A stretch of DNA of 48,244 bases from Elusimicrobia bacterium CG08_land_8_20_14_0_20_51_18 (GTDB lineage: Bacteria > Elusimicrobiota > Elusimicrobia > Elusimicrobiales > UBA9959): the NCBI GenBank assembly GCA_002774685.1, contig PEXN01000105.1, positions 1-48,244 of the forward strand, in the 5' to 3' direction. Below the pieces are notes generated by a model. It made no database searches and was not told the DNA's origin. It was given only the letters and a program-made list of their open reading frames with translations. The position numbers and the translations under genes are program-made. Every line of letters starts with the position of its first letter. Positions within the stretch are counted from its first letter, which is position 1. Below, piece after piece: positions 8,087 through 47,100 of this stretch.

Positions 8087-10870
8087 TTACTTCCCTTTTC
8101 TCGGGTTCTTTATCTGCGCCTGCGCGGCCGACAGAATGGCTATCGGAACGCGGAACGGGGAGCAGGAGACGTAGTTAAGCCCCGTCTTGTGGCAGAATTC
8201 CACGGAAGCCGGTTCTCCGCCCTGTTCGCCGCAGATGCCTATCTTAAGGTCTTTGCGGGTCTTGCGGCCGCGTTCGACGGTGATCTTTATCAGCTCGCCC
8301 ACGCCGACCTGGTCTATGGTCTGGAAAGGGTCCACCGGGATTATCTTCTGATCCACGTATTCCTTCAGGAAATAGCCCGAATCGTCGCGGGAATAGCCGA
8401 AGGTCATCTGGGTGAGGTCGTTGGTGCCGAAAGAGAAGAACTGCATGGTCTCCGACAGCTTGCCCGCGATAAGACAGGCGCGCGGGATTTCTATCATGGT
8501 GCCGACCATATAGGCGAACTTCACGCCGCGGGACTTGGAGACCTCCGCGTACACTTTATGGATGAGCCCGGCCTGGTGGGTGACTTCCGCTTCGAGCGAA
8601 ACGACCGGGATCATGATGTCCGGATAAGCTTTCACGCCTTCCTTGTACAATTCGGCGGCGGCCTCGAAAATGGCCCTGGCCTGCGTCTCGGTTATCTCGG
8701 GATAAGTTACGCCGAGCCTGACGCCCCTGTGGCCCATCATCGGGTTGGATTCGCGCAGGGCGGTAGCGCGGGCTTCGAGTTCCTCGAAAGAGATATCGAG
8801 GGACTTGCCGAGCTCTTCAAGCTTTTCCTTCTGATGGGGAACGAACTCATGGAGCGGCGGGTCCATCAGGCGGATGGTAACATGCAGCCCTTCCATGACC
8901 TTCAGGGTGTTCTTAATGTCGTTCTTCATGTAAGGGAAGAGATCGTTGAGAGCGGCCTTCCTCTCTTCGAGGGTCTTGGACATGATCATTTTTCGCAGCT
9001 GGAACAGGGCCTGGTCGGAACCCTTGCCGTAAAACATATGTTCTATGCGGAACAGGCCTATGCCTTCGGCGCCGAACTTGCGGGCCACGGTGGAATCGGC
9101 CGGGGTGTCGGCGTTGGTCCAGACCTTAAGCGCGCGCACGCCGTTGCAAAGCTTGAGGAACTCGCCCAGGGTGCCCAGGGATTCGCTGGCGTCTATCATT
9201 CCCATCCGGCCTTTGTAGACGAGGCCTTTGGAGCCGTTAAGGGTTATCCAGTCGCCTTCCTTGAGTGTTTCGCCGCCGAGGCGCAGGGTTTTGGAACCGC
9301 GCTCTATCTCTACGCCGGCGCAGCCTACGACACAGCATTTGCCCCAGCCGCGGGCCACGAGGGCCGCGTGGGAGGTCATGCCGCCCCTGGCGGTGAGGAT
9401 GGCTTCGGCCGCCCTCATTCCTTCCACGTCTTCGGGATTGGTTTCTTCGCGTACTAAAATGACTTTTTTACCTTCTTTGTTCCATTTAACGGCGTCGGCC
9501 GCGGTGAAAACTATCATACCCACGGCGCCGCCGGGACCGGCGGGAAGGCCCTTGCCTATCGACTTGGTCTTGGCTTCGGCCTTCGGGTCTATGATCGGGT
9601 GGAGGAGTTCGTCAAGCTGGGAGGGGGTAACGCGCATGACGACTTCCTCGCGGGTGGCGAGTTTTTCCTTATACATATCGAGAGCCATGCGGACGGCCGC
9701 CGGGCCGTTCCTCTTGCCGACGCGGCACTGCAGCATGTACAGTTTGCCGTTCTCGACGGTGAATTCTATGTCGAGCATGTCGCGGTAATGCTTTTCGAGC
9801 TTGGCGCGGATGGCGGCCAGCTCCTTGTAGCAGGCGGGCATCAACTGCTGCATTGATTTAAGATTCCTGGACTGGTCGCTGCGGCTTTCCTCGTTGATGG
9901 GATGCGGGGTGCGGATGCCGGCCACGACGTCCTCGCCCTGGGCGTTCTCGAGGAACTCGCCGTAAAAATAATTTTCGCCGGTGCCGGGGTTGCGGGTAAA
10001 GGCCACGCCGGTGGCGGAAGTGTCGCCCATATTGCCGAACACCATGCTCTGCACGTTGACGGCGGTTCCCCATTCGGCGGGGATCTTCTCTATCTCGCGG
10101 TATTTCACTGCCTTGTTGCCCATCCAGGAGGCAAACACGGCGCCGATGGAACCCCAGAGCTGGTCCATGTGGTTGTCGGGAAATTCCTTGCCCAACGCTT
10201 CCTTTATCCTGGCCTTGAACTGTTCGGCCAGTTCCTTAAGGTCGTTGGCGCTCAGGTCGGTGTCGGACTTGGCGCCGCGCTTCTGCTTCATGGCGTCCAT
10301 GATATGCTCGAGCTGTTTGCGGATGCCCCTGTTGTCCTCGACCTCTATGCCGGCGCCTTTCTCCATGACGACGTCGGAGTACATCATGATGAGGCGGCGG
10401 TAGGAATCGTATACGAAGCGGGGATTCCTGGTGAGCTCTATGAGGCCCGGAATGGTCGCGGTGGTAAGACCGCAGTTAAGTATGGTTTCCATCATGCCCG
10501 GCATGGATTTCCTGGCGCCCGACCGCACGGAGACGAGGAGCGGGGTCTTCGGGTCGCCGAATTTTTTGCCGGTCAGTTCCTCGACGCGGGCGAGGTTCTT
10601 TTCGACGTCGGCCCTGAGCTGTTTCGGATAGGACCTTTTATTGGCCCAATACCAGGCGCAGACTTCAGTGGTTATGGTGAAGCCCGGTGGTACCGGGAGC
10701 TTCAAAGAGGGATGCCCCGCCATTTCGGCCAGGTTCGCGCCCTTGCCGCCGAGCAAATTTTTCATGGATTCTTTGCCTTCGGCTTTTCCGCCGCCGAAGG
10801 AATAGACCATCTTCGAAATTTTAGCCTGTTTCTTGGAATTATTTGATTTTTTAACAGCCGTTTTAGCCAT
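8087..10870 (-). CDS. ppdK: Pyruvate, phosphate dikinase
   Basis: Phosphohistidine motif GGMTSHAALVARGWGK and C-terminal PEP-utilising domain (KIGICGEQGGEP). I moved the start to the ATG at 10868-10870 (MAKTAVKK...), which has AGGAGA 7 nt upstream. The 28 extra codons in the ORF track have no SD. Confidence 0.95.
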   Translation of the reverse strand: MAKTAVKKSNNSKKQAKISKMVYSFGGGKAEGKESMKNLLGGKGANLAEMAGHPSLKLPVPPGFTITTEVCAWYWANKRSYPKQLRADVEKNLARVEELTGKKFGDPKTPLLVSVRSGARKSMPGMMETILNCGLTTATIPGLIELTRNPRFVYDSYRRLIMMYSDVVMEKGAGIEVEDNRGIRKQLEHIMDAMKQKRGAKSDTDLSANDLKELAEQFKARIKEALGKEFPDNHMDQLWGSIGAVFASWMGNKAVKYREIEKIPAEWGTAVNVQSMVFGNMGDTSATGVAFTRNPGTGENYFYGEFLENAQGEDVVAGIRTPHPINEESRSDQSRNLKSMQQLMPACYKELAAIRAKLEKHYRDMLDIEFTVENGKLYMLQCRVGKRNGPAAVRMALDMYKEKLATREEVVMRVTPSQLDELLHPIIDPKAEAKTKSIGKGLPAGPGGAVGMIVFTAADAVKWNKEGKKVILVREETNPEDVEGMRAAEAILTARGGMTSHAALVARGWGKCCVVGCAGVEIERGSKTLRLGGETLKEGDWITLNGSKGLVYKGRMGMIDASESLGTLGEFLKLCNGVRALKVWTNADTPADSTVARKFGAEGIGLFRIEHMFYGKGSDQALFQLRKMIMSKTLEERKAALNDLFPYMKNDIKNTLKVMEGLHVTIRLMDPPLHEFVPHQKEKLEELGKSLDISFEELEARATALRESNPMMGHRGVRLGVTYPEITETQARAIFEAAAELYKEGVKAYPDIMIPVVSLEAEVTHQAGLIHKVYAEVSKSRGVKFAYMVGTMIEIPRACLIAGKLSETMQFFSFGTNDLTQMTFGYSRDDSGYFLKEYVDQKIIPVDPFQTIDQVGVGELIKITVERGRKTRKDLKIGICGEQGGEPASVEFCHKTGLNYVSCSPFRVPIAILSAAQAQIKNPRKGK

Positions 10871-18043: not shown

Positions 18044-19207
18044 TCAATCCGGAAAATACCTTTTTACTTTCGCGGAAAATTCCGATAAATATTTTTTGGG
18101 GAGATTCGAGATGGCCTTGTATTTCATTTTCAGGTAGTTGATAAATTTCCCGTTCTGCCTTATTCTGAAATCCAAATGCGGGCCCGTGGAAATCCCGGTG
18201 GAGCCGACATAGCCTATCACCTGGCCCTGCGACACTCTCCTCCCGGTTCTCAGCCCTCTCGCGTACCTGGAAAGGTGACCGTAACTGGTGATATACCCGG
18301 ACGAATGTTTTACCTCTATAAAATTCCCGTAGCCGCCTTTCCAGCCCTTCCAGACCACCGTCCCGTCAGCTACGGAAGAAACCGGAGTACCGGTGCCGGC
18401 GGCGTAATCTATGCCCAGGTGGGGCCTGACGTATTTCAAGACCGGGTGATACCTTTTCAGGGTAAAGCGGGAGGAGATGCGCCTGTAACTGAGGGGGGCC
18501 CGCAAAAACATGCTCCTAGCCCCTTCGCCGTTCTCGTTATAATAATTTCCTTTAAATTCCACGGCTATTTTCCGGCCGGCCTCCGAACCTTCATACATCG
18601 CGGCGGTTATTTTCTGGGAAATTATCCGGCCATTTTTGGTCTTTTCTATTTCGTAAAAAACCCTGAATTTGTCGCCGGCGCGGACTTCGGTGAGAAAATC
18701 CACGGTCCAGGCGAATATATCGGTAAAATCCAGTATGGTCTCGGCCGGCACGTCTTCCGAAGACATGGCTTCCCAAAGGTTATCCTTTATTTTCCCGGAA
18801 GCCTCGTAGGAAACGGCGTCGACCGGGACCGCCGTCTCGGAAAAGGAATATTTGCCTTCCTTTTTGAAAACGGAATAATTTTTCGTTCCTTTTTCTATGG
18901 TTATATATTTAAAATCGGCGGAAGAGAAGGCGATGGCGTAGGAATCCCTTTCACCCAGCTTTCTGAAATCTATTTTTCCGGTAAAGGCCTTTATGACGCC
19001 CCTTTTATCGGTTTCCGAAACGCCGCATTCTTCCAGTTCCTGTTCCAGGACGCCGGAAAAAGTGCCGGTCGAGTAGGAAATGCCGCTGAAGAGCTGGAAA
19101 TCCAGCGGCTTACCGGTCTTCAGAACGTTATAAAAAAAGATCAAAGACAGAGCCAGCACGGGGAAACCCGCGAGATATATAAAAAGCCTTTTCTTAAAAT
19201 CTCTCAT
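18044..19207 (-). CDS. M23 family peptidoglycan metallopeptidase, membrane-anchored
   Basis: HLGIDYAAGTGTPV (HxxxD) and GSTGISTGPHLDFRI. The usual HxH reads H-L-D here. Confidence 0.85.
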   Translation of the reverse strand: MRDFKKRLFIYLAGFPVLALSLIFFYNVLKTGKPLDFQLFSGISYSTGTFSGVLEQELEECGVSETDKRGVIKAFTGKIDFRKLGERDSYAIAFSSADFKYITIEKGTKNYSVFKKEGKYSFSETAVPVDAVSYEASGKIKDNLWEAMSSEDVPAETILDFTDIFAWTVDFLTEVRAGDKFRVFYEIEKTKNGRIISQKITAAMYEGSEAGRKIAVEFKGNYYNENGEGARSMFLRAPLSYRRISSRFTLKRYHPVLKYVRPHLGIDYAAGTGTPVSSVADGTVVWKGWKGGYGNFIEVKHSSGYITSYGHLSRYARGLRTGRRVSQGQVIGYVGSTGISTGPHLDFRIRQNGKFINYLKMKYKAISNLPKKYLSEFSAKVKRYFPD

Positions 19208-20679
19208 CAGCAGTAAAGGTATTCCTCGACTATTTTTTTGATGTCCTCTTCTTTCCCGTAAAGTTTCTCGCTGAGGTTCTTATCGCCGTAACTCCTCAGC
19301 CTTTTAACCAGCCCGTCTATCACCGGCTGGGGGAAAACCCCTCCCTTCTCGTAAACCTCGCGATCCTTCAAAAGTTCGTCGGCGGATTCGGCGCAGGAGG
19401 CGGGCAGGGAAGGGAACTTCTCCCTGATTTCCAGGTTTTCCTTGCGGAAAACATTCCTATCGATGAAATGTTCCTCGGCGTAATTCACCGAATCCTTCAT
19501 TTCAAAGCCGTGGGCTGCCGCCATGACCAGGCCCGAAAGCAGGAGATAAATATTGGCCGAACCGTCGGCCGACCTGAATTCCACGGTCTGGTTGCCCTCG
19601 TATCCGGTTCTTTTTTTGACCTGGGGATTCATATCCGCGACCATGTCCTTTTCCAGATTCCAGCCGAGCGGAACCCTGACCAGAGCCGACCTGTTCCTGT
19701 ATCCCCAGCATACGTTTATGGGCGCTTCCTGGTGGGGGACCAGCCTCAGGTAGGAGGTGGGCACGGTATTGCCGAAAGCCGTAAGAGAGCGGGCTGATTT
19801 CAGCCAGCCGGCTATAACCTTTTTTGCCTCGTCGGAAAGGTTCTTGTTCTTCAGCATTACGTTCTTCCCGTTCTTCGCCAGACAGGCGTGTATATGGAAA
19901 CCGGAGCCGGCGTGGCCTACGGATATCTTCGGGGCGAAGGTTATTACGACGCCGTATTTGTAGCCCAGGGAGGAAAGTATCCACCTGGACACGACTATCT
20001 CCTCCGCCGATTTCAGGAGCGGCTGGGGCAGAAATTCTATCTCGTGCTGGCTCATTTCCTGCTCCTCCGTCCTTATGAAGCCGACCTCGCTGTGCGCGTA
20101 TTTTATATGCCCTCCGCAGCGGTCTATAAGGTTGGCGGCTTCCACCCGGAGGAATTCCCATTTATTGAAAGGGGCGCTTTCATGATACCCTTTCTGGGCT
20201 ATGGCCGGGTAAAGCGCGTTTTTGGGGGAGATCACGTAATATTCCAGCTCGCCCAAGGCCTTCATTTCAAGGCCGGCGGAATCGCGGAATCTCTTGTCGG
20301 CCTTTTTAAGGATATTGTCGGGGGAACTGGCGAAAGGGTTGCCGTCCTTGTCGTAAAAACCGCAAATGACGTCCATGGCCGGGATCTGGGAAAAAGGGTT
20401 GATGAAAACGCTGGAATATCTCGGGACGACATAAAGGTCGCTGGAGGAGGCGTCTATGCTCCTGAAAAGGCTGGAACCGTCCGCCCTCTCGCCGCAGGAC
20501 AGTATCTTGTCCAGGTATTTCGGGTCGTTTACGGTGAAATTCAGGGTTTTGAGCCTGCCGTCGCCGGCCACATATCTGAAATTAAAGATCTCCACTCCGT
20601 TGGCTTTGGCGAATTTCAGCAGGTCTTCTCTGGTGAAGCTTCTGGCGTCCTTATTAAGCGCTTTTTCGATCAGGTTCAT
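19207..20679 (-). CDS. glnA: Glutamine synthetase family protein
   Basis: GS catalytic-domain motifs GSGFHIH and NRSALVRVP. AAGGAG SD (complement of 20687-20692) lies inside repeat copy A. Confidence 0.8.
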   Translation of the reverse strand: MNLIEKALNKDARSFTREDLLKFAKANGVEIFNFRYVAGDGRLKTLNFTVNDPKYLDKILSCGERADGSSLFRSIDASSSDLYVVPRYSSVFINPFSQIPAMDVICGFYDKDGNPFASSPDNILKKADKRFRDSAGLEMKALGELEYYVISPKNALYPAIAQKGYHESAPFNKWEFLRVEAANLIDRCGGHIKYAHSEVGFIRTEEQEMSQHEIEFLPQPLLKSAEEIVVSRWILSSLGYKYGVVITFAPKISVGHAGSGFHIHACLAKNGKNVMLKNKNLSDEAKKVIAGWLKSARSLTAFGNTVPTSYLRLVPHQEAPINVCWGYRNRSALVRVPLGWNLEKDMVADMNPQVKKRTGYEGNQTVEFRSADGSANIYLLLSGLVMAAAHGFEMKDSVNYAEEHFIDRNVFRKENLEIREKFPSLPASCAESADELLKDREVYEKGGVFPQPVIDGLVKRLRSYGDKNLSEKLYGKEEDIKKIVEEYLYC

Positions 20680-20686
20680 AAAAGAC

Positions 20687-20789
20687 TCCTTAATTAACGG
20701 CAGATCAAGATTAAGACTGAGTAAGTTTAGAGTTTAGAGTTCTCTAAACCACGTTGCTCTAAACTAAGTTGCTCTAAACTAAATTGCGG
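20687..20789 (-). repeat. Intergenic repeat family, copy A (short form; functional orientation is the minus strand, toward glnA)
   Basis: Shares CTCAGnCTTAATCTTGATCTGCCGTTAATyAAGGAG, CTCTAAACTCTAAAC and 15-nt units with copies B and C. It has three tandem 15-mers on the plus strand at 20742-20756, 20757-20771 and 20772-20786 (CTCTAAAC + 7 nt). Confidence 0.8.
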
Positions 20790-20863
20790 AAATTATATTT
20801 TAAGTATATCAAATTTTTCAGGCTTTTCAGGAACGGAGCACGAGTTAAAATAGCCCGTTTGGA

Positions 20864-20893
20864 TTGACTTTAAGGTGTGTTAAATTTTATAAT
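20864..20893 (+). promoter_or_regulatory. rpsO promoter TTGACT-N18-TATAAT
   Basis: -35 at 20864-20869 and -10 at 20888-20893, leaving a 5' UTR of about 45 nt before the ATG at 20943. Confidence 0.55.
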
Positions 20894-20942
20894 ATACTTA
20901 ACAATAGAAACATTAAAACCAAAAAAGAGAGTGTGAAAAACG

Positions 20943-21212
20943 ATGACAATGACAAAAGCAAAGAAAAAAGAAGTTATTGAGAAGGTTTCGGCCGGGCCGA
21001 ACGACACGGGCTCCAGCTCGTCGCAGGTAGCCCTGCTCACCGAAAGAATACAGTACCTTTCAAAACATCTTACCAACAACCCGAAAGATAACTCCTCCAA
21101 AAGGGGCCTTTCATTGCTCATTTCCAAGAGAAAGAGCCTTCTTTCTTACTTGGAAAGGACAAACAAAGAAGAATATCAGAAGCTGATAAAGCAATTAGGC
21201 TTAAGGAAATAA
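20943..21212 (+). CDS. rpsO: 30S ribosomal protein S15
   Basis: GSSSSQVALLTERIQYLSKHL... is the typical S15 sequence. 89 aa. Confidence 0.95.
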   Translation: MTMTKAKKKEVIEKVSAGPNDTGSSSSQVALLTERIQYLSKHLTNNPKDNSSKRGLSLLISKRKSLLSYLERTNKEEYQKLIKQLGLRK

Positions 21213-21218
21213 AAATAT

Positions 21219-23336
21219 ATGAAATCCAACAACTTAGTCCACTTCGAAGAGAAGGTGGGAAGAGACTTAATTTCGTTAGAAACCGGAGTACTCGCCAAAC
21301 AGGCGAACGGCGCCGTAGTCTTGAAACTCGGCGATAACGTCATACTGGCGGCCTGCACCCAGGCCGGCAAACCGAGGACGGCGCCTCCCGAATTCGTTCC
21401 CTTGACGGTCGAATACAAGGAAAGGACCTACGCGGCCGGAAAGATCCCGGGTGGCTTCTTCAAAAGGGAAGGCAAAGCCAGAGAAAAAGAAGTTATCTCG
21501 GCGAGGCTCACCGACAGGTCCATAAGGCCTCTTTTCCCGGAATATTACAACACCGAAACGCAGGTGGTGCTCATGGTGCTTTCCAGCGACGGCGCCATAG
21601 AACCCGGCGTCCTCGCCATAAACGCGGCCTCGGCGGCGCTCATGATCTCCGACATCCCCTTCAAAGGGCCCGTCAGCGCGGTCAGAATCGCCAAGGTCAA
21701 CGGGGAATACGTGATAAACCCGACTTTCGAGGAAAGGAAAACGGCGGAACTCGAACTCGTGGTCTCCGGAACCCTCGAAGGCGTGCTCATGGTCGAAGGC
21801 GGCGGAAAAGAGATCCCCAACGAAGAACTCATAAAGGCGATCGAAGCGGCCAAGATAGAGATAAACAAACTCTGCAAGGCCCAGGTAGAACTGGCCAAGC
21901 TGTCCAACAAGCCCAAAATAGAGGTGGTAAAACCCGAAATGAAATCGGAAATAGCCGAAGACCTGCAGGCCAATGCCAAGAAAGACATAGAAAAAGTTCT
22001 CAACGCCTTCCCGGACAAGAAAACCATGGAAGCGGGGCTTTCGGCCATCCAGGAAGCCATGATAAAGAAATACCAGGAGAAATACCCGGAAGACGCGACC
22101 ATAGCCTACCAGGTCAAAACCCTGATGAACGACGTCATCTACGACGTTTCCAGGGACATAGTCCTCAATAAGAAGGTCAGGACCGACGGCAGGAAATACG
22201 ACGAGATCAGGGCCATAAGCATCCAGACCGGCTATCTTCCCAGGACCCACGGCTCGGCCGTTTTTACCAGGGGCCAGACCCAGGCCATAGCGGCCACGAC
22301 CCTCGGCACCCAGGACGACCAGCAGATACTGGACGACCTGGAAGGCAGGAGCATGGACAGGTTCATGCTGCACTACAACTTCCCCGGTTTTTCCACCGGC
22401 GAAGTGAAGCCGGACAGAGGCCCCAGCAGAAGGGAAATAGGCCACGGACATCTCGCCAAGAGAGCCCTTTCTTACCTGCTTCCCGATGAGGCCGACTTCT
22501 CCTATACCATAAGGATAGTTTCCGACATCCTGGAATCCAACGGTTCCTCCTCCATGGCCACCGTCTGCGGCGGTTCGCTCTCATTGTTCGACGCCGGCGT
22601 GCCGATGAAAGGCGCCTGCTCGGGCATAGCGATGGGACTCATAACCGGCAAGAATAAACACGCCGTCCTTTCCGATATAGCCGGTCTCGAGGACCATTTC
22701 GGAGACATGGATTTCAAGCTCGCCGGTTCACGGAAAGGCATCACCGCCTTCCAGATGGACGTAAAGCTTGCCAGCGGCATTCCGATGGACATCCTTAAGG
22801 AAGCCATCGAACAGGCGGCGCGGGGAAGGAATCATATCCTGGACCTCATGGAAAAAGCGCTTCCCGCGCCAAAAACCGATCTTTCCGCTTACGCGCCCAA
22901 GATGGTGAAAGTGGCCATACCTAAAGACAAAATAGGCGCTTTCATCGGACCCGGCGGAAAAAACATAAAAGCCGTGATAGAGAAAACCCAGGCCAATATA
23001 GAAGTCAATGACGACGGCATGGTTTTCATTTCGAGCCCCGACCAGGCCAGCGTAGACATGGCGAAGAAGATAGTGGAGCAGTTCGCCATGGAAGTCGAAG
23101 TGGGCAAGGTTTACAAGGGCAAGGTCGTGAACATAGTGGAATTCGGAGCTTTCGTGGAAGTCCTTCCCGGAAAGGAAGGTCTGCTGCACATCTCCGAAGT
23201 CGACCTGAAGAGGATAAACAGAGTGGAAGATGTGCTGAAACTCGGAGACGAAATAGACGTAAAAGTGATAAACATGGAAAACTCCGGCAGGTTCAAGCTC
23301 TCCAGGAAAGTCCTCCTGCAGGCCAAGCGCGACTAA
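21219..23336 (+). CDS. pnp: Polyribonucleotide nucleotidyltransferase (PNPase)
   Basis: Two RNase PH domains, a KH domain (IGAFIGPGGKNIKAV) and an S1 domain (GKVVNIVEFGAFVEVLPGKEGLLHISE). It starts 6 nt after rpsO. Confidence 0.97.
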   Translation: MKSNNLVHFEEKVGRDLISLETGVLAKQANGAVVLKLGDNVILAACTQAGKPRTAPPEFVPLTVEYKERTYAAGKIPGGFFKREGKAREKEVISARLTDRSIRPLFPEYYNTETQVVLMVLSSDGAIEPGVLAINAASAALMISDIPFKGPVSAVRIAKVNGEYVINPTFEERKTAELELVVSGTLEGVLMVEGGGKEIPNEELIKAIEAAKIEINKLCKAQVELAKLSNKPKIEVVKPEMKSEIAEDLQANAKKDIEKVLNAFPDKKTMEAGLSAIQEAMIKKYQEKYPEDATIAYQVKTLMNDVIYDVSRDIVLNKKVRTDGRKYDEIRAISIQTGYLPRTHGSAVFTRGQTQAIAATTLGTQDDQQILDDLEGRSMDRFMLHYNFPGFSTGEVKPDRGPSRREIGHGHLAKRALSYLLPDEADFSYTIRIVSDILESNGSSSMATVCGGSLSLFDAGVPMKGACSGIAMGLITGKNKHAVLSDIAGLEDHFGDMDFKLAGSRKGITAFQMDVKLASGIPMDILKEAIEQAARGRNHILDLMEKALPAPKTDLSAYAPKMVKVAIPKDKIGAFIGPGGKNIKAVIEKTQANIEVNDDGMVFISSPDQASVDMAKKIVEQFAMEVEVGKVYKGKVVNIVEFGAFVEVLPGKEGLLHISEVDLKRINRVEDVLKLGDEIDVKVINMENSGRFKLSRKVLLQAKRD

Positions 23337-23340
23337 AAGC

Positions 23341-23502
23341 AGGTTAAGCGTTAGATTAAGGTTGAGAGAACAGTAATTTAGTTTAGAGTAATTTAGTTCA
23401 AAGTAATTTAGTTTGGAGCAACTTGGCAAAACAGCTCTAAACTCTAAACTTTAAACTCTAAACTTTCTCAGCCTTAATCTTGATCTGCCGTTAATCAAGG
23501 AG
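23341..23502 (+). repeat. Intergenic repeat family, copy B (long form; faces accB)
   Basis: The core 23381-23449 is the exact reverse complement of 24281-24349. It has three 15-nt direct units at 23373-23417 and CTCTAAAC at 23435, 23442 and 23456. It ends with the accB SD AAGGAG at 23497-23502. Confidence 0.9.
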
Positions 23503-23507
23503 ATCTT

Positions 23508-23999
23508 ATGAAAAAAACCAAGAATCCGAACGGACCCGCCGCCTTAAACGACGTAAAGAAATTTTACGATTTCATGACTTCCAACAAGCTGGAAGTCCTT
23601 GAATTTTCCCAGGGGGAAACTTACATAAAGCTGGTAAGGAAGAACGCCCAGCCGATAAACGCACACCCCATCCCCGTTTTTACCAGCAACATGCCCGCCA
23701 TGCAGATCCCCCAGAGAGGCCAGCAGGGCGGCGTACAGCAGGCTCCCCAGGCTCCGGCCGGCGAGACGATAAAATCGCCGATGTCAGGAATCTTTTACCG
23801 GGCGCCGAGCCCGTCGAGCCCGCCCTATGTCCGGGAGGGCGACACCGTAAAGCGGGGTCAGGTGCTCTGCATAGTGGAAGCCATGAAAGTTTTCAACGAG
23901 ACAAAGGCGGATTTCGACTTCAAGGTGCTCAAAGTCCTGGTGGAAAACGGCAAGGCCCTGACGCTTAATCAGGATATCTTTCTGATAGAGAGGATCTGA
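23508..23999 (+). CDS. accB: Biotin carboxyl carrier protein (biotinyl-domain protein)
   Basis: C-terminal biotinyl domain with CIVEAMKVFNE (the EAMK biotinylation motif), a Pro/Ala/Gln linker and a BCCP-like N-domain. No accC is adjacent. Confidence 0.85.
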   Translation: MKKTKNPNGPAALNDVKKFYDFMTSNKLEVLEFSQGETYIKLVRKNAQPINAHPIPVFTSNMPAMQIPQRGQQGGVQQAPQAPAGETIKSPMSGIFYRAPSPSSPPYVREGDTVKRGQVLCIVEAMKVFNETKADFDFKVLKVLVENGKALTLNQDIFLIERI

Positions 24000-24214
24000 T
24001 GCAGGAAAATTTTTCCGAAGTCGTGTCGCAAAACGCCGAAAAAATAATCGGCCTCCTGAAGAACGCGCCGGCGGCCAATTCCTGGGACATAAAACTCAAG
24101 CTGAAACTCTCCAGCTCCAATCTTTATCTGGCGCTCGGCTACCTTATCTCGGCAAATAAAATAACGATTTTTCCGGACGACCTCAATTACAAAATAAAAC
24201 TGAACCAGGAATAA
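23999..24214 (+). CDS. Small winged-helix protein (DUF2582-like)
   Basis: 71 aa with a TGATG overlap with accB. The segment NSWDIKLKLKLSSSNLYLALGYLISANKI resembles the DUF2582 wHTH family. Confidence 0.5.
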   Translation: MQENFSEVVSQNAEKIIGLLKNAPAANSWDIKLKLKLSSSNLYLALGYLISANKITIFPDDLNYKIKLNQE

Positions 24215-24248
24215 ATCCGGGGCGCCGTGAGAAGTTGTCCCAGCCGGG

Positions 24249-24411
24249 TTAACGGCAAATTAAGACTGGGATACAGGAAAGTTTAGAGTTTAGAGCTGTT
24301 TTGCCAAGTTGCTCCAAACTAAATTACTTTGAACTAAATTACTCTAAACCAAGTTGCTCTAAACTGAATTACTGTTTTCTCAACCTTAAGCTAATCCGTC
24401 GCTTAATCTGC
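24249..24411 (-). repeat. Intergenic repeat family, copy C (long form; inverted relative to B, same orientation as A)
   Basis: The core 24281-24349 is the reverse complement of 23381-23449 (69/69). The flanks are imperfect, and the terminal leader/SD segment is degenerate (CTTAATTTGCCGTTAACCC). Confidence 0.9.
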
Positions 24412-24432
24412 TTTATTAACAGGAGTGGGACG

Positions 24433-26721
24433 ATGTATAAACTATTCTCGACGAAACCAAAAACTCCCAAAAACGCGAGAAAATCCGGTTTTTCCGAAAT
24501 TTTTTACTGGGTAGCCACCTTATCGGCGGTTCTCTGGCTCTTCTGGATAATCCTCAATCCCAGCCAGAAAGGAATAGCCGGAAGGCTGTTTTTCGATTCC
24601 CTCCATTCCTTTTTTGGAGCGTCCGTTTACTTCCTGCCTTTTCTGCTCCTTTACGGCATAATAGCCATCCTCCTGAGGCTGGGGAAGCCGAACAAAGGGA
24701 TAATCACTCTCGGCGCCGGGATAGTTTTCTTCCTGACGGCCCTCTCCTCCATCCTGGATTTCGCGAGGTACAAGACCCAGAGCCGGGTCTTCGACGGCGG
24801 CTACCTGGGCCATTTCACGGACACCGCTCTCATAACGGTTTTCGGAGACGCCGGGTCCCTCATTTTTTCCGTCGCCCTGCTTATCCTTTCGGCTCAGATA
24901 ATATTCAAGATTTCCTGGGGCAGGCTGGCCGCCTCTTCGATGAACGCCCTGAAAATTGATTACAAACAGTGGACCATGGCCAGGAACGAGTTCAGGAACA
25001 AACTTAAGACCATAAAGGATAACGAGGACAGAAAAGAAAAAGTTTACGACATCAAACCGGTGTCCCTCGGCGCGGCTCCCGCGCCCGAGCATGAAACCCC
25101 CGCGCAGAAGGGGAAAAAGCCCGCCGAAAAACAGGAACCCGCGGTTAAACAGGAACCGCAACGGCCGCCGGTTCAGATACTCAATTCGATAAACCCGTTT
25201 AAAACGGAAAAAGCCAGGCCCGCAAAAGAGGAGAAACCTCCCATCCCCGGGCAGTTCGCCCATTTCAAGAATTTCAAGCTTCCGTCGATAAACCTGCTGA
25301 GCGTGGTGGAAAACCAGAACGCCGGGCCGGACTCCGACGAGATACAGTCGTCCAAGCAGAAACTCGAGGAAACCCTTAAAAGTTTCGAGATCTCGGCCTA
25401 TGTTTCCGGGGTATACCCGGGACCCGTTATCACCAGGTACGAAGTCACTCCCTCTCCCGGCGTTAAAATAAGCTCCATAGTCTCCCTTTCCAACGATATA
25501 GCCCTGGCCATGAGAGCCCAGGGGATACGGGTAATAGCCCCGATTCCCGGCAAATCGGCCATAGGCTTTGAGATCCCCAACGCCAACAGGGCCAAGGTGG
25601 GCCTGAGGGAAATACTGGAAAGCCCCCAATTCAACCAGTCCAGGGGCCATCTGACTTTCGCCCTCGGCAGGCAGGCGGAGGGTTCGGTGGCCGTCGCGAA
25701 CCTCGAATCCATGCCGCATCTTCTAGTGGGCGGCGCCACGGGCAGCGGCAAGAGCGTTTTCCTGCAGGCCCTCATCCTTTCGATAATTTACAGGAACACC
25801 CCGGACGAGGTAAAATTCCTTTTCATAGACCCTAAACGCCTGGAGCTGACCTTCTATGAAGGCATTCCCTATCTTTACGACCCCAAGGTGACCGCTGACA
25901 GGGTTTCGGTCATAACCGACGCCAAAGAGGCGGCGAAATCACTGATAGCCCTGACCAGGGTCATGGAAAAACGCTACAAAAAATTCGAGAAGGCCAGGGT
26001 CAAGAACATCGCCGCCTATAACAAATGGGCGCAGGTCAACAACCAGCCGCCGGAATTTTACATCGTGGTGGTCATAGACGAACTGGCCGACCTGATGCTT
26101 CAGGCCAAGAACGTGGTGGAAGAGAACATCCAGAGGCTGGCCCAGATGGCGAGAGCCGTGGGCATACACCTCGTACTCGCCACACAGAGGCCTTCCGTGG
26201 ACGTCATAACGGGCGTCATAAAGGCCAATCTTCCTTCGAGGGTGGCCTTACAGGTCACTTCCAAAGTGGATTCCAGGGTCATAATAGACAGCCCGGGAGC
26301 GGACGCGCTTATCGGGAAAGGCGACATGCTTTACCTCGGCATAGAACAGCAAAAGGCGGACAGGATACAGGGCTGTTACGTGGGAGAGGATGAAATAGAG
26401 AAGATCTCCGCTTTCATAAAGGAGCAGGGCGCGCCCAATTATCCGCCCCTTACCGAAGAAGAAGAGATGAATACCGAAGGCAAAGGCGGTTCCTCCGAGG
26501 AACTGGTAAACGCCCTGAAACTGGTTGTCGAAAGGAGAAGGGTTTCCCAGGACCTTCTCAAGGCTCATTTCGGATCTTCGGCCAGGGCTACCAATATCCT
26601 CAGCCTCCTCGAGGTTAAGGGGTTTATACACAAGCCCGAAGGCTCCAACCGGTGGGAAATATTTTTCGACAGGATAGAAGGCTTTCTCAGCCAGCACGCC
26701 GGGGAAGTCGGCAAACAGTAA
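24433..26721 (+). CDS. ftsK: DNA translocase FtsK
   Basis: N-terminal TM helices, a Pro/Lys/Glu linker, Walker A GGATGSGKS, TQRPSVDVITG and a C-terminal gamma wHTH. I moved the start to the ATG at 24433 (AGGAG SD). The upstream 44 codons are a translation of repeat C. Confidence 0.95.
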   Translation: MYKLFSTKPKTPKNARKSGFSEIFYWVATLSAVLWLFWIILNPSQKGIAGRLFFDSLHSFFGASVYFLPFLLLYGIIAILLRLGKPNKGIITLGAGIVFFLTALSSILDFARYKTQSRVFDGGYLGHFTDTALITVFGDAGSLIFSVALLILSAQIIFKISWGRLAASSMNALKIDYKQWTMARNEFRNKLKTIKDNEDRKEKVYDIKPVSLGAAPAPEHETPAQKGKKPAEKQEPAVKQEPQRPPVQILNSINPFKTEKARPAKEEKPPIPGQFAHFKNFKLPSINLLSVVENQNAGPDSDEIQSSKQKLEETLKSFEISAYVSGVYPGPVITRYEVTPSPGVKISSIVSLSNDIALAMRAQGIRVIAPIPGKSAIGFEIPNANRAKVGLREILESPQFNQSRGHLTFALGRQAEGSVAVANLESMPHLLVGGATGSGKSVFLQALILSIIYRNTPDEVKFLFIDPKRLELTFYEGIPYLYDPKVTADRVSVITDAKEAAKSLIALTRVMEKRYKKFEKARVKNIAAYNKWAQVNNQPPEFYIVVVIDELADLMLQAKNVVEENIQRLAQMARAVGIHLVLATQRPSVDVITGVIKANLPSRVALQVTSKVDSRVIIDSPGADALIGKGDMLYLGIEQQKADRIQGCYVGEDEIEKISAFIKEQGAPNYPPLTEEEEMNTEGKGGSSEELVNALKLVVERRRVSQDLLKAHFGSSARATNILSLLEVKGFIHKPEGSNRWEIFFDRIEGFLSQHAGEVGKQ

Positions 26722-44138: not shown

Positions 44139-47100
44139 GTGAAAAAAAACATATCCAACTCGATTTTCGCCCTGATAATGACGCTTACCATACTGGCGCT
44201 CTATTTTCAGGGAGCGGTAATAGAGAACATAGAGCTTAAATTTTACGATTTCTACTCCTCCATAAAAGCCCCTTCTTCCACCAGCAACGACATAACGCTT
44301 ATCGAGATAAACGACGAAAGTCTCGCTAAAGTCGGCAGGTGGCCATGGGAAAGGTCCAAAATAGCGGAAATGATAACCTGGCTGAATTCCCAGAACGCGA
44401 AACCCGCCATAATAGGCCTCAATATCCTTTTTTCCGAGCCGGAGAACAATAAATCCAAACAGGTGGCCGACCGGATAGAGGCGAGGTACAAGGAACTGGT
44501 CGCCCAGAAAAAAATAAGGGAAATATCGAAGGACTCCGAATTCCTGGCCACCGTGGACGGTCTTAAAAAGGACCTGGACAACGATTTAAAACTGCAGATA
44601 GCGATCAGCACGGGCGGTAACGTGGTTCTGCCTATGTTTTTCGAATTAAGCGAAATAAATTCCAAGCCCAGGGAAGAACCGGAATATTTCAAGTCCATGG
44701 CCATCACTCTCAACCAGAATTCCCCGGAAGAAATGCGGGATGAAGCCTCCGGCCTGACGCTCCCGATAGACTCCCTGGGCTCCGGCGCCAGGGCGGTGGG
44801 ACACACCAACGTCGTGAACGACATCGACGGCTCCCTTAGAAGGCATAACCCTTTCCTGGAATACAACGGCAGCGTCTATCCTTCCTTCCCCGTACAGATA
44901 GCGAATCTCTACGCCGGCAAGGAATCCAGGGACCTCGTCCTTAAATCCGGAGAAAATTTCAGAATAGGGAAGAACACTATCGCCCTGGACACCGACTCCT
45001 CCATGCATCTCTCTTACAGCAAGGGCGGAAAAACCTTCAGGTCCTATTCTTTCTACGACGTCATAAACAACAAGATAGTCCCGGAAGCTTTCAACAACAA
45101 GGTAGTGCTGATAGGGCTTACGGCTCACGGTTACGTAACCACCTACGTCACGCCGGTGGAAAAGAGCATGACCAACCTGGAGCAGTCGGCCAATGTCATA
45201 GACAACCTCATGAAAGGCGATTTCATCCACGTCCCGCAATGGGCCGCTATGGCGGAAATTTCCGCCATAGCGGCGGTGGGCCTGTTCGCCATAATAGCGC
45301 TGCCTTTTCTGAAAGCCGCCATGGGCGCCATAGTCTCCATACTCATACTTCTCCTGCTGATGGGAACCTCCTCCTATCTTTTCATTTACAAGGGCATGTG
45401 GATAAAAATGACCTACCCTTCAGCGCTGCTTATCGCTTCGTATATTTTTATAGTTTCCAAGAGATTTTTCTCCACCGAAAAGAAAAAAGAGCTCATAGAA
45501 GTTTCCCAGATAGAAACCAACAAGATGCTCGGCCTTTCCTTCCAGGGCCAGGGCATGCTGGACCTGGCTTTCGAGAAGTTCAGGCTCTGCCCGGTGGACG
45601 ACAATATGAAGGAACTGCTCTACAATTTGGGCCTGGATTTCGAGAGGAAAAGGCAGTTTAACAAGGCGAAAGCCGTTTACGAACACGTATCCGAAAAAGA
45701 TCCCGGCTACAAAGACCTTAAGGAAAAAATAGAAAACCTGACTAAAGCCGCCGACGGCGGAGTATTCGCGAGCCCGGCCGGAAAAAACAAGGAAAGCACC
45801 ATTTTGGTCTCAGGCTCGAGCGCCACTCCCACGCTGGGCCGCTACGAAGTCATGAAAGAGCTGGGGAAAGGCGCCATGGGCATAGTCTACCTGGGCAAAG
45901 ACCCGAAGATCAACAGGACGGTGGCCATAAAAACGATGCGTTTCGAGGAAGGGTTGGAAGAAAAGGAAATGAAAGCCCTGAAAGAAAGATTTTTCCGGGA
46001 AGCGCAGGCGGCGGGAAATCTTTCCCATCCCAATATAGTCAAGATCTTCGACGCCGGCGAGGACCAGGACATAGCTTATATGGCCATGGAACTTCTTAAG
46101 GGCGAAGACCTCAAAAAATACACCCGGAAGGAAAACATCCTGCCTCGGGAAAAGGCCCTGCTCTACACCTACCAATCCGCGCTGGCGCTGGATTACGCCC
46201 ACAAGAACGGGGTGGTGCACCGCGACATAAAACCGGCCAATATAATGCTTCTCGAAGACGGCTCGCTGCGCGTAACCGACTTCGGCATAGCCAGAATACA
46301 GGAATCCTCCAAAACCGCCACCGGGACCGTGATGGGAACTCCCTACTACATGAGCCCGGAACAGATACAGGGCAAGAAAGTGGACGGCCGGGCGGACCTT
46401 TTCTCGCTCGGAGTAACCATGTACGAACTGCTCACCTGCGAAAGACCCTGGAAAGGCGGCGAATCCGTGGCCACCCTTTTCTATCAGATAACAAGCGAGC
46501 CCTATCCGGATCCCAGGGAATACGACAAGAGCCTGAGCGAGCCGATAATAAGGATAATCGACAAGGCCCTGAAAAAAAATCCGGACGAAAGATATCAGAA
46601 CGGGGCCGAAATGGCGGAGGACATAAAAGCCGTCATGGACGACAAGTCCGGCGGACAAACCTCCGCCGCCCCGGCTGCCGCCGCTAAAAACCCGGCCCCG
46701 AAACCGGCGGCAAATCCGGCTCCGGCGCCGGCCCCGAAGCCGGCACCGGCTACAACCGCTAAAACCCCGGCCCCTCAGCCGGCGACCAAACCGGCTCCAG
46801 CGCCGGTCCCGAAACCGGCCCCGGCTATGCCCGCTAAAACCCCGCTCCCTCAGCCGGCGGCCAAGGCGGCCCCGGCTCCCGCTCCGGCGCCGAAACCGGC
46901 TCCCAGACCGCGGCCCGCGGCTCTGGATCTAGGCGGAATAACGGTGGAAAAAGAGCCCAAGGCGGCTATGCAGCTTAAACCGGCCGAGCTTTCGCTTCAG
47001 CCCGGCGGACCGAAAAAGGAACCGGTCAAAGAAACGCCCAAATCGGACCCTATAGTGAAAGACAGCCTGCAGCTCCCTATTTCGGAAACGCTTAACCAAA

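Follow-up and report, generated by a model that had tools for sequence, protein, structure and literature searches.

Two unrelated genes, glnA and accB, are preceded in one stretch of an Elusimicrobiota genome by almost the same nucleotides, and the question raised by this locus is why the two should seem to share both a leader and a ribosome-binding site. The stretch, referred to here as the window, is 48,244 nt long and is contig C68 of a 1.83-Mb Elusimicrobiota MAG that comprises 166 contigs and is 81% complete. A preliminary description of the locus took the repeat found before both genes to be a portable leader or expression module. The explanation favoured here, which we think is probably the right one, is that the copies belong to a dispersed repeat of the MITE type, non-coding, palindromic and modular in build and similar to Correia and BrickBuilt elements, that was inserted between stop codons and Shine-Dalgarno (SD) sequences. 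The common 'leader' of glnA and accB is the same terminal repeat lying beside two independent SDs, a palindromic repeat showing the same end to any neighbouring gene, which is why two unrelated genes appear to have a leader and ribosome-binding site in common.

Three copies of one repeat around glnA, accB and ftsK

The window contains three copies of the repeat, A, B and C. Copy A, located by alignment and a repeat search, is on the minus strand at 20680-20785 if the side with the SD and start codon is included, with the element part covering 20692..20785. Its modules are the terminal motif CTTGATCTGCCGT (20697-20709), a 7-nt arm CTCTAAACTCTAAAC (20725-20739) and three 15-nt units (20742-20785), it is a partial copy with one end only, the terminal module of the far end being absent. 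The gene that follows it is glnA-like (19207..20679, minus strand, from the ORF list) and encodes a 490-aa protein of the glutamine synthetase family, with a match to NCBIfam TIGR00653 GlnA that has an E value of 6.7e-67 and is below the curated cut-off. Translation of glnA starts at the ATG at 20679 on the minus strand, and its SD, AAGGAG (20686..20691, minus strand), is found in the context TAATTAAGGAG, outside the terminal motif common to the whole family and with the start codon 6 nt further on. The letters first given for this leader are correct except for the spacer between SD and ATG, which is TCTTTT and thus has one T more than was written. Directly upstream of copy A a consensus scan predicts a promoter-like sequence, CTGAAA-18-TATAAT (20792..20821, minus strand, 10/12 matches), and with this putative promoter, the -10 of which ends at 20792, the 5' UTR of glnA would consist almost entirely of copy A.

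Copy B (23335..23493, plus strand) is full length. On the left it starts with the terminal repeat AAAGCAGGTTAAG, which shares the final A of the TAA that ends pnp (23334-23336), and it continues with the 15-nt units, then the 7-nt CTCTAAA units, then the right motif CTTGATCTGCCGT (23479-23491) and TA. The SD of accB, AAGGAG (23497..23502, plus strand), is 5 nt past the terminal motif of this copy. The accB gene itself, which encodes BCCP (23508-23999, plus strand, NCBIfam TIGR00531, E 3.9e-30), is bracketed by copies B and C, as is a wHTH-like ORF of 71 aa (23999-24214, plus strand). Copy C (24250..24417, minus strand) is inverted relative to B, and its B-like end CTTAATTTGCCGTTAA (the ACGGCAAATTAAG of 24252-24264) points, as was described at the outset, toward the end of the wHTH gene, the stop codon of which is 37 nt away, and has no GGAG after it. 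The earlier account did not extend to the opposite end of copy C, CTTAATCTGCTTT (24402-24414), which lies 6 nt before the AGGAG (24421-24425) of ftsK, a gene with its true ATG at 24433 (24433..26721, plus strand, NCBIfam NF007615, E 5e-105) that has this end of the copy as its leader. Copy C gives ftsK a leader similar to those of the other two genes because the arms of the repeat are complementary and its two ends are therefore alike. For both accB and ftsK the repeat would be intercistronic. A promoter inside the repeat was considered and rejected, the best consensus matches being 9/12 and the same sequence in copy C being one that would fire antisense into the wHTH gene.

The resemblance between A, read on the minus strand, and B, read on the plus strand, is as close as it had been reported to be. 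The two end in a near-identical stretch of ~47 nt before AAGGAG-N5/6-ATG, their common inverted-repeat arm is 56 nt long with 93% identity (pair I3 in the repeat search), and an exact 23-mer, CTTAATCTTGATCTGCCGTTAAT, is common to both, with 2 matches in the window compared to 0 in 100 shuffles. In both copies the 23-mer runs on into TAAT(C/T)AAGGAG, followed by 5-6 nt and ATG. The copies are indeed inverted around rpsO and pnp, two genes that are confirmed by matches to NCBIfam TIGR00952 and TIGR03591, both above cut-off (20943..23336, plus strand), although the arms are 2705 nt apart and not the 2.55 kb first given. Copy C was said to have the same body, and it is 100% identical to B over 72 nt, with the corresponding inverted pair (I1) 96% identical over 81 nt. 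The copies are mosaics, in that B and C have a perfect core of 72 nt and diverged ends, whilst A and B have a common end and different core units.

Structure and folding of the repeat family

Beyond what was seen in the window the repeat forms a family that is spread genome-wide, with at least 20 loci having the same core when BLAST and word clustering are used. The layout of a full copy is TA - ACGGCAGRTTAAG - variable words - (TTTAGAGyAAyTTAG) x 1-6 - short loop - (CTCTAAA) x 1-6 - variable words - CTTAAYCTGYYKT - TA, in which the number of units varies freely from 1 to 6. The terminal inverted repeats ACGGCAGRTTAAG and CTTAAYCTGYYKT are found at both ends of copies B and C, and of the copies on C9, C135 and C140. 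Copies are 105-190 nt in size, stop codons are abundant in all of their frames and no ORF is called across them. As the 15-nt and 7-nt arms are complementary, either strand has few Cs in its 5' arm and few Gs in its 3' arm, and a gene beside either end thus sees "...CTCTAAA...CTTAAYCTGYYKT" running toward its start.

As RNA, copy B is predicted to form a hairpin of -52.6 kcal/mol, with a z score of -4.8 (to -5.5) and a stem that closes just before CGUUAAUCAAGGAG. It is apparent that full copies alone fold better than their shuffles, the other examples being those on C135 (z -2.7), C24 (-2.3), C9 (-2.7) and C140 (-3.8), with the fold of copy A no better than that of its shuffles (z +0.3). A search of Rfam over 20500-24600 on both strands gives no match at E values up to 1. 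Covariation along the stem would not tell an RNA function apart from symmetry imposed on the ends by a transposase. In the MFE fold the sequence GTTGTCCCAG at 24235-24245 of the window, upstream of copy C, pairs with GAGTGGGAC at 24422-24432, by the SD of ftsK; the flanks of the copy C insertion are complementary, and this may be due to chance.

Related short words, among them GATTAAG, GGTTAGA, GTCTCAR and TTGCAAC, abound between the genes of this genome and are enriched 10-60 fold in non-coding over coding DNA. Such 'brick' words dominate the non-coding DNA of the genome, and other tandem arrays of short words, for example (GTCTCAR)n, CTTCACGCTTTACG and ACTTGCAAC, make up additional palindromic elements in spacers (C94:3390-3470 and many others). 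Elsewhere in the window, at 46668-46892, there are three tandem 75-nt repeats, 75-81% identical and rich in GCC/CCG codons, that probably encode a Pro/Ala-rich repetitive protein segment.

The words of the repeat recur regularly, every 15 nt or every 7 nt, they are 10-20 fold enriched in non-coding DNA, and (CTCTAAA)n arrays are found in several genera, all of which would suit an array of operator-like sites. The 7-nt and 15-nt words would then be bound by a DNA- or RNA-binding protein, for example the wHTH protein encoded between B and C, and the repeats would mark its regulon. Against this, the genes adjacent to the repeats are without a common function, the number of units is free, the wHTH gene is syntenic in relatives that do not have the repeat, and many other families of words fill spacers in the same manner, and an array of this kind is extremely improbable.

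Position of the repeat ends relative to Shine-Dalgarno sequences

The preliminary description had the repeat supply both the leader and the ribosome-binding site of glnA and accB. The first half of this holds by position, the DNA just 5' of both SDs being repeat; the second half does not, as the SD lies outside the repeat. This is apparent from an inventory of the terminal motif over the whole MAG, in which CTTAAYCTGYYKT with at most 1 mismatch has 95 matches, 37 in coding regions, which on a rough estimate is about the number expected by chance, and 58 in non-coding DNA. The stricter CTTAAYCTGYYKTWA has 16 exact matches and its reversed control has 0. How often such ends adjoin a start codon had been put forward as informative, and the outcome is divided, with 24 of the 58 non-coding ends having an SD 2-9 nt on (mode 4) and a start codon 11-19 nt on, provided that the start codon opens an ORF of at least 50 aa, and with 34 that do not. 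Approximately 9 of the 58 meet the stop codon of the adjoining gene with no gap between, as where CTTAACCTGCTTT followed by TA overlaps the TAA of pnp, and the remaining non-coding ends face other repeat modules.

At the 34 non-coding ends away from starts GGAG or GAGG within 16 nt is found once and is absent from the other 33. Among the 24 start-adjacent ends the spacer from motif to SD ranges over the 2-9 nt noted above and differs in sequence, and in relatives that are free of the repeat accB and glnA have SDs of their own at the customary distance. The SD is for these reasons placed outside the repeat; it belongs to the gene and not to the repeated unit. The repeat is leader or intercistronic RNA by position only.

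The genes after the 24 start-adjacent ends include fabZ, rpsA, rplS, rpsH, rpsM, scpB, pgk, a tryptophanase (tnaA)-like gene, yebC, a gene for an SPFH protein, accB, ftsK and glnA, with the remainder assigned by eye only. A reading of these genes as a regulon was rejected, as they are functionally unrelated housekeeping genes. Ends of the family are found before the SDs of rpsH, rpsM, rplS and rpsA in ribosomal-protein clusters (C34:2690-3048, C34:~9140-9295, C25:10628-10748 and C24:7260-7601), and their presence inside such clusters implies that long hairpin inserts are tolerated in core operons. It is improbable that the hairpin elements are more than tolerated and that the common terminal module (CUUAAYCUGYYGU-UAA) by 24 housekeeping SDs, including those of four ribosomal-protein genes, acts as a shared processing, standby or stabilising site, in which case it would constitute a repeat-based layer of post-transcriptional control in this lineage.

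Orientation of the repeat at gene junctions

A lack of orientation bias had been named at the outset as a result that would speak against a portable module, and a bias toward downstream genes was not detected. The gene set used for the junction tests comes from a crude home-made ORF scorer and contains 1496 genes, with rpsO among those that it missed. On this set motif-bearing junctions are 31 of 1043 co-directional (3.0%), 4 of 141 convergent (2.8%) and 6 of 146 divergent (4.1%), so each type of junction is occupied about as often as its share of all junctions would predict. The motif is directed to the start in 21 cases and to the stop in 15 at co-directional junctions, and in 32 and 19 cases respectively at all junctions. 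For the asymmetric core, again at co-directional junctions, the 7-nt arm is toward the start in 4 cases and the 15-nt arm in 5. With no detectable bias, placement by an SD reflects where the elements can survive and not a direction in which they were recruited.

The idea of a portable leader and ribosome-binding site module, in which the repeat would bring the SD along with the leader and would have been taken up, always facing the same way, so as to drive or co-regulate translation of glnA, accB and other genes, has to be judged on this evidence as a whole. It can draw on the proximity of the 24 ends to an SD and start codon, on the excess of motifs directed to starts over those directed to stops at all junctions, and on the pair A and B, which are identical at 11 of 12 nt past the motif through AAGGAG in a form, TAATYAAGGAG, that is found only 3 times in the genome. 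It does not explain why the SD is missing from 33 of 34 ends away from starts, why the spacer is variable in length and sequence or why relatives have an SD without having the repeat. The even orientation of the core, the proportionate use of junction types and the lack of a common function among the downstream genes weigh against it too, as do the folds of 17 copies, of which 9 have the more stable fold on the sense strand and 8 on the antisense strand, with no signal of selection at the RNA level. We therefore abandon the expression module proposed in the preliminary description, which is very improbable.

Orthologous junctions in other Elusimicrobiota

The nearest AccB loci are all from MAGs of Elusimicrobia/Elusimicrobiota, and the synteny of pnp-accB-wHTH-ftsK is kept in more than 40 relatives. 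In the two nearest relatives the pnp-accB junction reads TAGGAGGAAAAATG and TAGGAGCTGCTATG, with its own SD and no repeat, and in many other relatives there is a spacer of 55-66 nt with a GC hairpin and GGAGG. For the 69 relatives in which pnp is beside accB the median spacer is 58 nt, compared to 171 nt here, with 22 spacers no longer than 30 nt and an SD recognised by our own rule in 54. The repeat is absent from the pnp-accB spacers of relatives that were inspected, these being 17 together with the 16 of the 69 that are longer than 100 nt. The same is seen on the other side of the wHTH gene, where ftsK follows after a spacer of 3-10 nt in the nearest relatives and of 218 nt in the genome of the window. 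In L021 and L023 glnA also diverges from rpsO, and there it has a GGAGG/GGAG of its own.

In a scan for AccB of genome and metagenome contigs the closest relatives are ~60% identical (62% or less), and no empty site from a close strain was found among them. Judged by sequence comparison, these junctions in distant relatives show a lineage-specific gain of the element and not recent mobility. The terminal motif is present in two other genera of the same family, with 7 and 3 exact matches, and (CTCTAAA)n arrays extend to several genera of the order; the occurrence of the motif in other genera implies that the repeat family predates the genus.

A number of other features were seen in the relatives. 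In another genus (L173, G004:C13, ~1480-1530) there is a minimal element that consists of two terminal repeats head to head, GCAGGTTAAG against CTTAATCTGTTGTTAA, between a stop codon and the next ATG. Many Elusimicrobia relatives, in the range L012-L029, have a conserved GC-rich stem-loop (CCGGCCCCCGCG...CGCGGGGGCCGG) and then GGAGG in the pnp-accB spacer, for example at L016:1720-1795, which may be an intercistronic attenuator or stabiliser that the repeat-bearing genome lacks. The nearest accB relative has a CRISPR-like array with the repeat GTCTTCCCCACGCAGGTGGGGGTGTTTC directly upstream of rpsO (L009:250-560), where the genome of the window has glnA.

Possible local copying between A and B

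Whilst the family as a whole does not carry an SD, the pair A and B could have acquired a common SD region by descent. Copy A would in that case be truncated, and gene conversion or illegitimate recombination with the inverted copy B 2.7 kb off would have produced or homogenised it along a tract that ran through the SD. That A is without the terminal repeat of the far end is consistent with such an origin, as are the presence of CTTGATCTGCCGTTAAT in A and B alone, the continuation of their identity as TAAT[C/T]AAGGAG, an 11-mer with just 3 occurrences in the genome, and the same mosaic pattern in B and C with their perfect core and diverged ends. The stretch that has to be accounted for is short, however, as AAGGAG, the most frequent of the strong SDs, precedes 9% of genes, and the element is usually bounded by TA or TAA, so that only ~3 nt are left unexplained; moreover glnA of L021 and L023 already has an SD at the same position. 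Local copying is on balance unlikely, though it merits more consideration than the other alternatives, and an SD region shared by A and B would not turn the repeats in general into expression modules.

Probable insertion between stop codon and Shine-Dalgarno sequence

Returning to a MITE-type insertion as the preferred explanation, what is seen of such elements here is small non-coding copies, terminal inverted repeats, many dispersed copies and absence from the orthologous junctions inspected. TA flanks both ends of full copies, and TA directly follows the motif at 21 of the 24 start-adjacent ends and 24 of the 34 others, although TA may itself belong to the terminal repeat. At 19% of genes a TA is present no more than 6 nt ahead of GGAG, and TAA is frequent among stop codons. 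We infer from these boundaries that the elements inserted at TA sites, possibly with duplication of the TA, and that they were at some time mobile; stop codons and extended SDs would then have been the TA targets. Insertions would have survived only where both the stop codon and the SD stayed intact. As the elements fill the very short spacers of a compact genome, their ends fall against each gene's own SD.

The pnp-accB junction allows such an event to be reconstructed. If copy B were taken out together with one TA, pnp and accB would be joined as GAC-TAA-TCAAGGAGATCTT-ATG, which is as tight as junctions commonly are, and with TA duplication and an SD borne by the gene the predicted empty site would be GACTAATCAAGGAG. 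Once inserted the element would presumably be transcribed, as an intercistronic or 5'-UTR hairpin. With stop codon and SD joined at its base, this hairpin may keep them near each other whilst most of the SD stays unpaired, and by analogy with Correia elements the hairpin could be a substrate of RNase III or a stabiliser.

The mosaic nature of the copies is a counterpoint to transposition, as recombination or conversion could have operated as well or instead. A search with PF13358 of the 81%-complete genome gave no transposase with matching ends, the one gene found (IS630-type, C135:27303-28423) having termini that differ. This IS630-family transposase gene (L089) is split over two overlapping frames and is located at the end of its contig.

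The locus is a caution against calling such stretches riboswitches, regulons or expression cassettes in Elusimicrobiota MAGs. In addition, long hairpins within ribosomal-protein operons and the pnp-accB operon, placed 2-9 nt from SDs, provide a natural test set for the relation of intercistronic structure to coupling and mRNA processing.

Comparison with known repeat elements

Repeats of the BOX, RUP, REP/BIME and ERIC types are modular and hairpin-forming, they are co-transcribed in operons and are tolerated between cistrons. The likeness of the present repeat to these is by analogy, with both the sequences and the grammar of the modules being different, and no membership is claimed.

The Correia elements (CREE/nemis) of Neisseria are ~100-160 bp long with terminal inverted repeats, they occur in many copies and are mostly found 5' of genes (Snyder et al. 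2009, PMC2649163). When a Correia element lies between a native promoter and its gene it becomes part of the mRNA, and its hairpins are cut or bound by RNase III; promoters can form at the ends of the elements, one copy abuts an initiation codon and duplication of the target has been reported (PMC2649163). The repeat described here is likewise small and non-coding with terminal inverted repeats and many copies, its full copies fold into long structures and its ends abut SDs or stop codons. It differs in that there is no relation in sequence, in having internal tandem units of 15 nt and 7 nt, in its uncultivated Elusimicrobiota host, and in that duplication of the target is inferred solely from the TA at its boundaries. 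It is not a member of the Correia family and is at most a functional analogue, with a hairpin potential that is predicted.

In its architecture the repeat is closer to the BrickBuilt MITE of Porphyromonas gingivalis, a tandem minisatellite with a leader and a tail that have small inverted-repeat ends, which is always intergenic and has a variable number of units (Klein et al. 2015, PMC4596501). The minisatellite within a MITE, the inverted ends, the intergenic location and the variable unit number are features of both, although the two are unrelated in sequence. BrickBuilt is based on one direct array of 23-nt units and is located at a distance of 49-591 nt from coding sequences (PMC4596501), whereas the present repeat has two complementary arrays, one of 15-nt and one of 7-nt units, that pair as a hairpin, and its ends are 0-9 nt away from stop codons or SDs. 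The repeat before glnA, accB and ftsK is probably the relic of an ordinary kind of mobile element, with Correia/CREE as its closest functional analogue and the BrickBuilt MITE as its closest architectural one.
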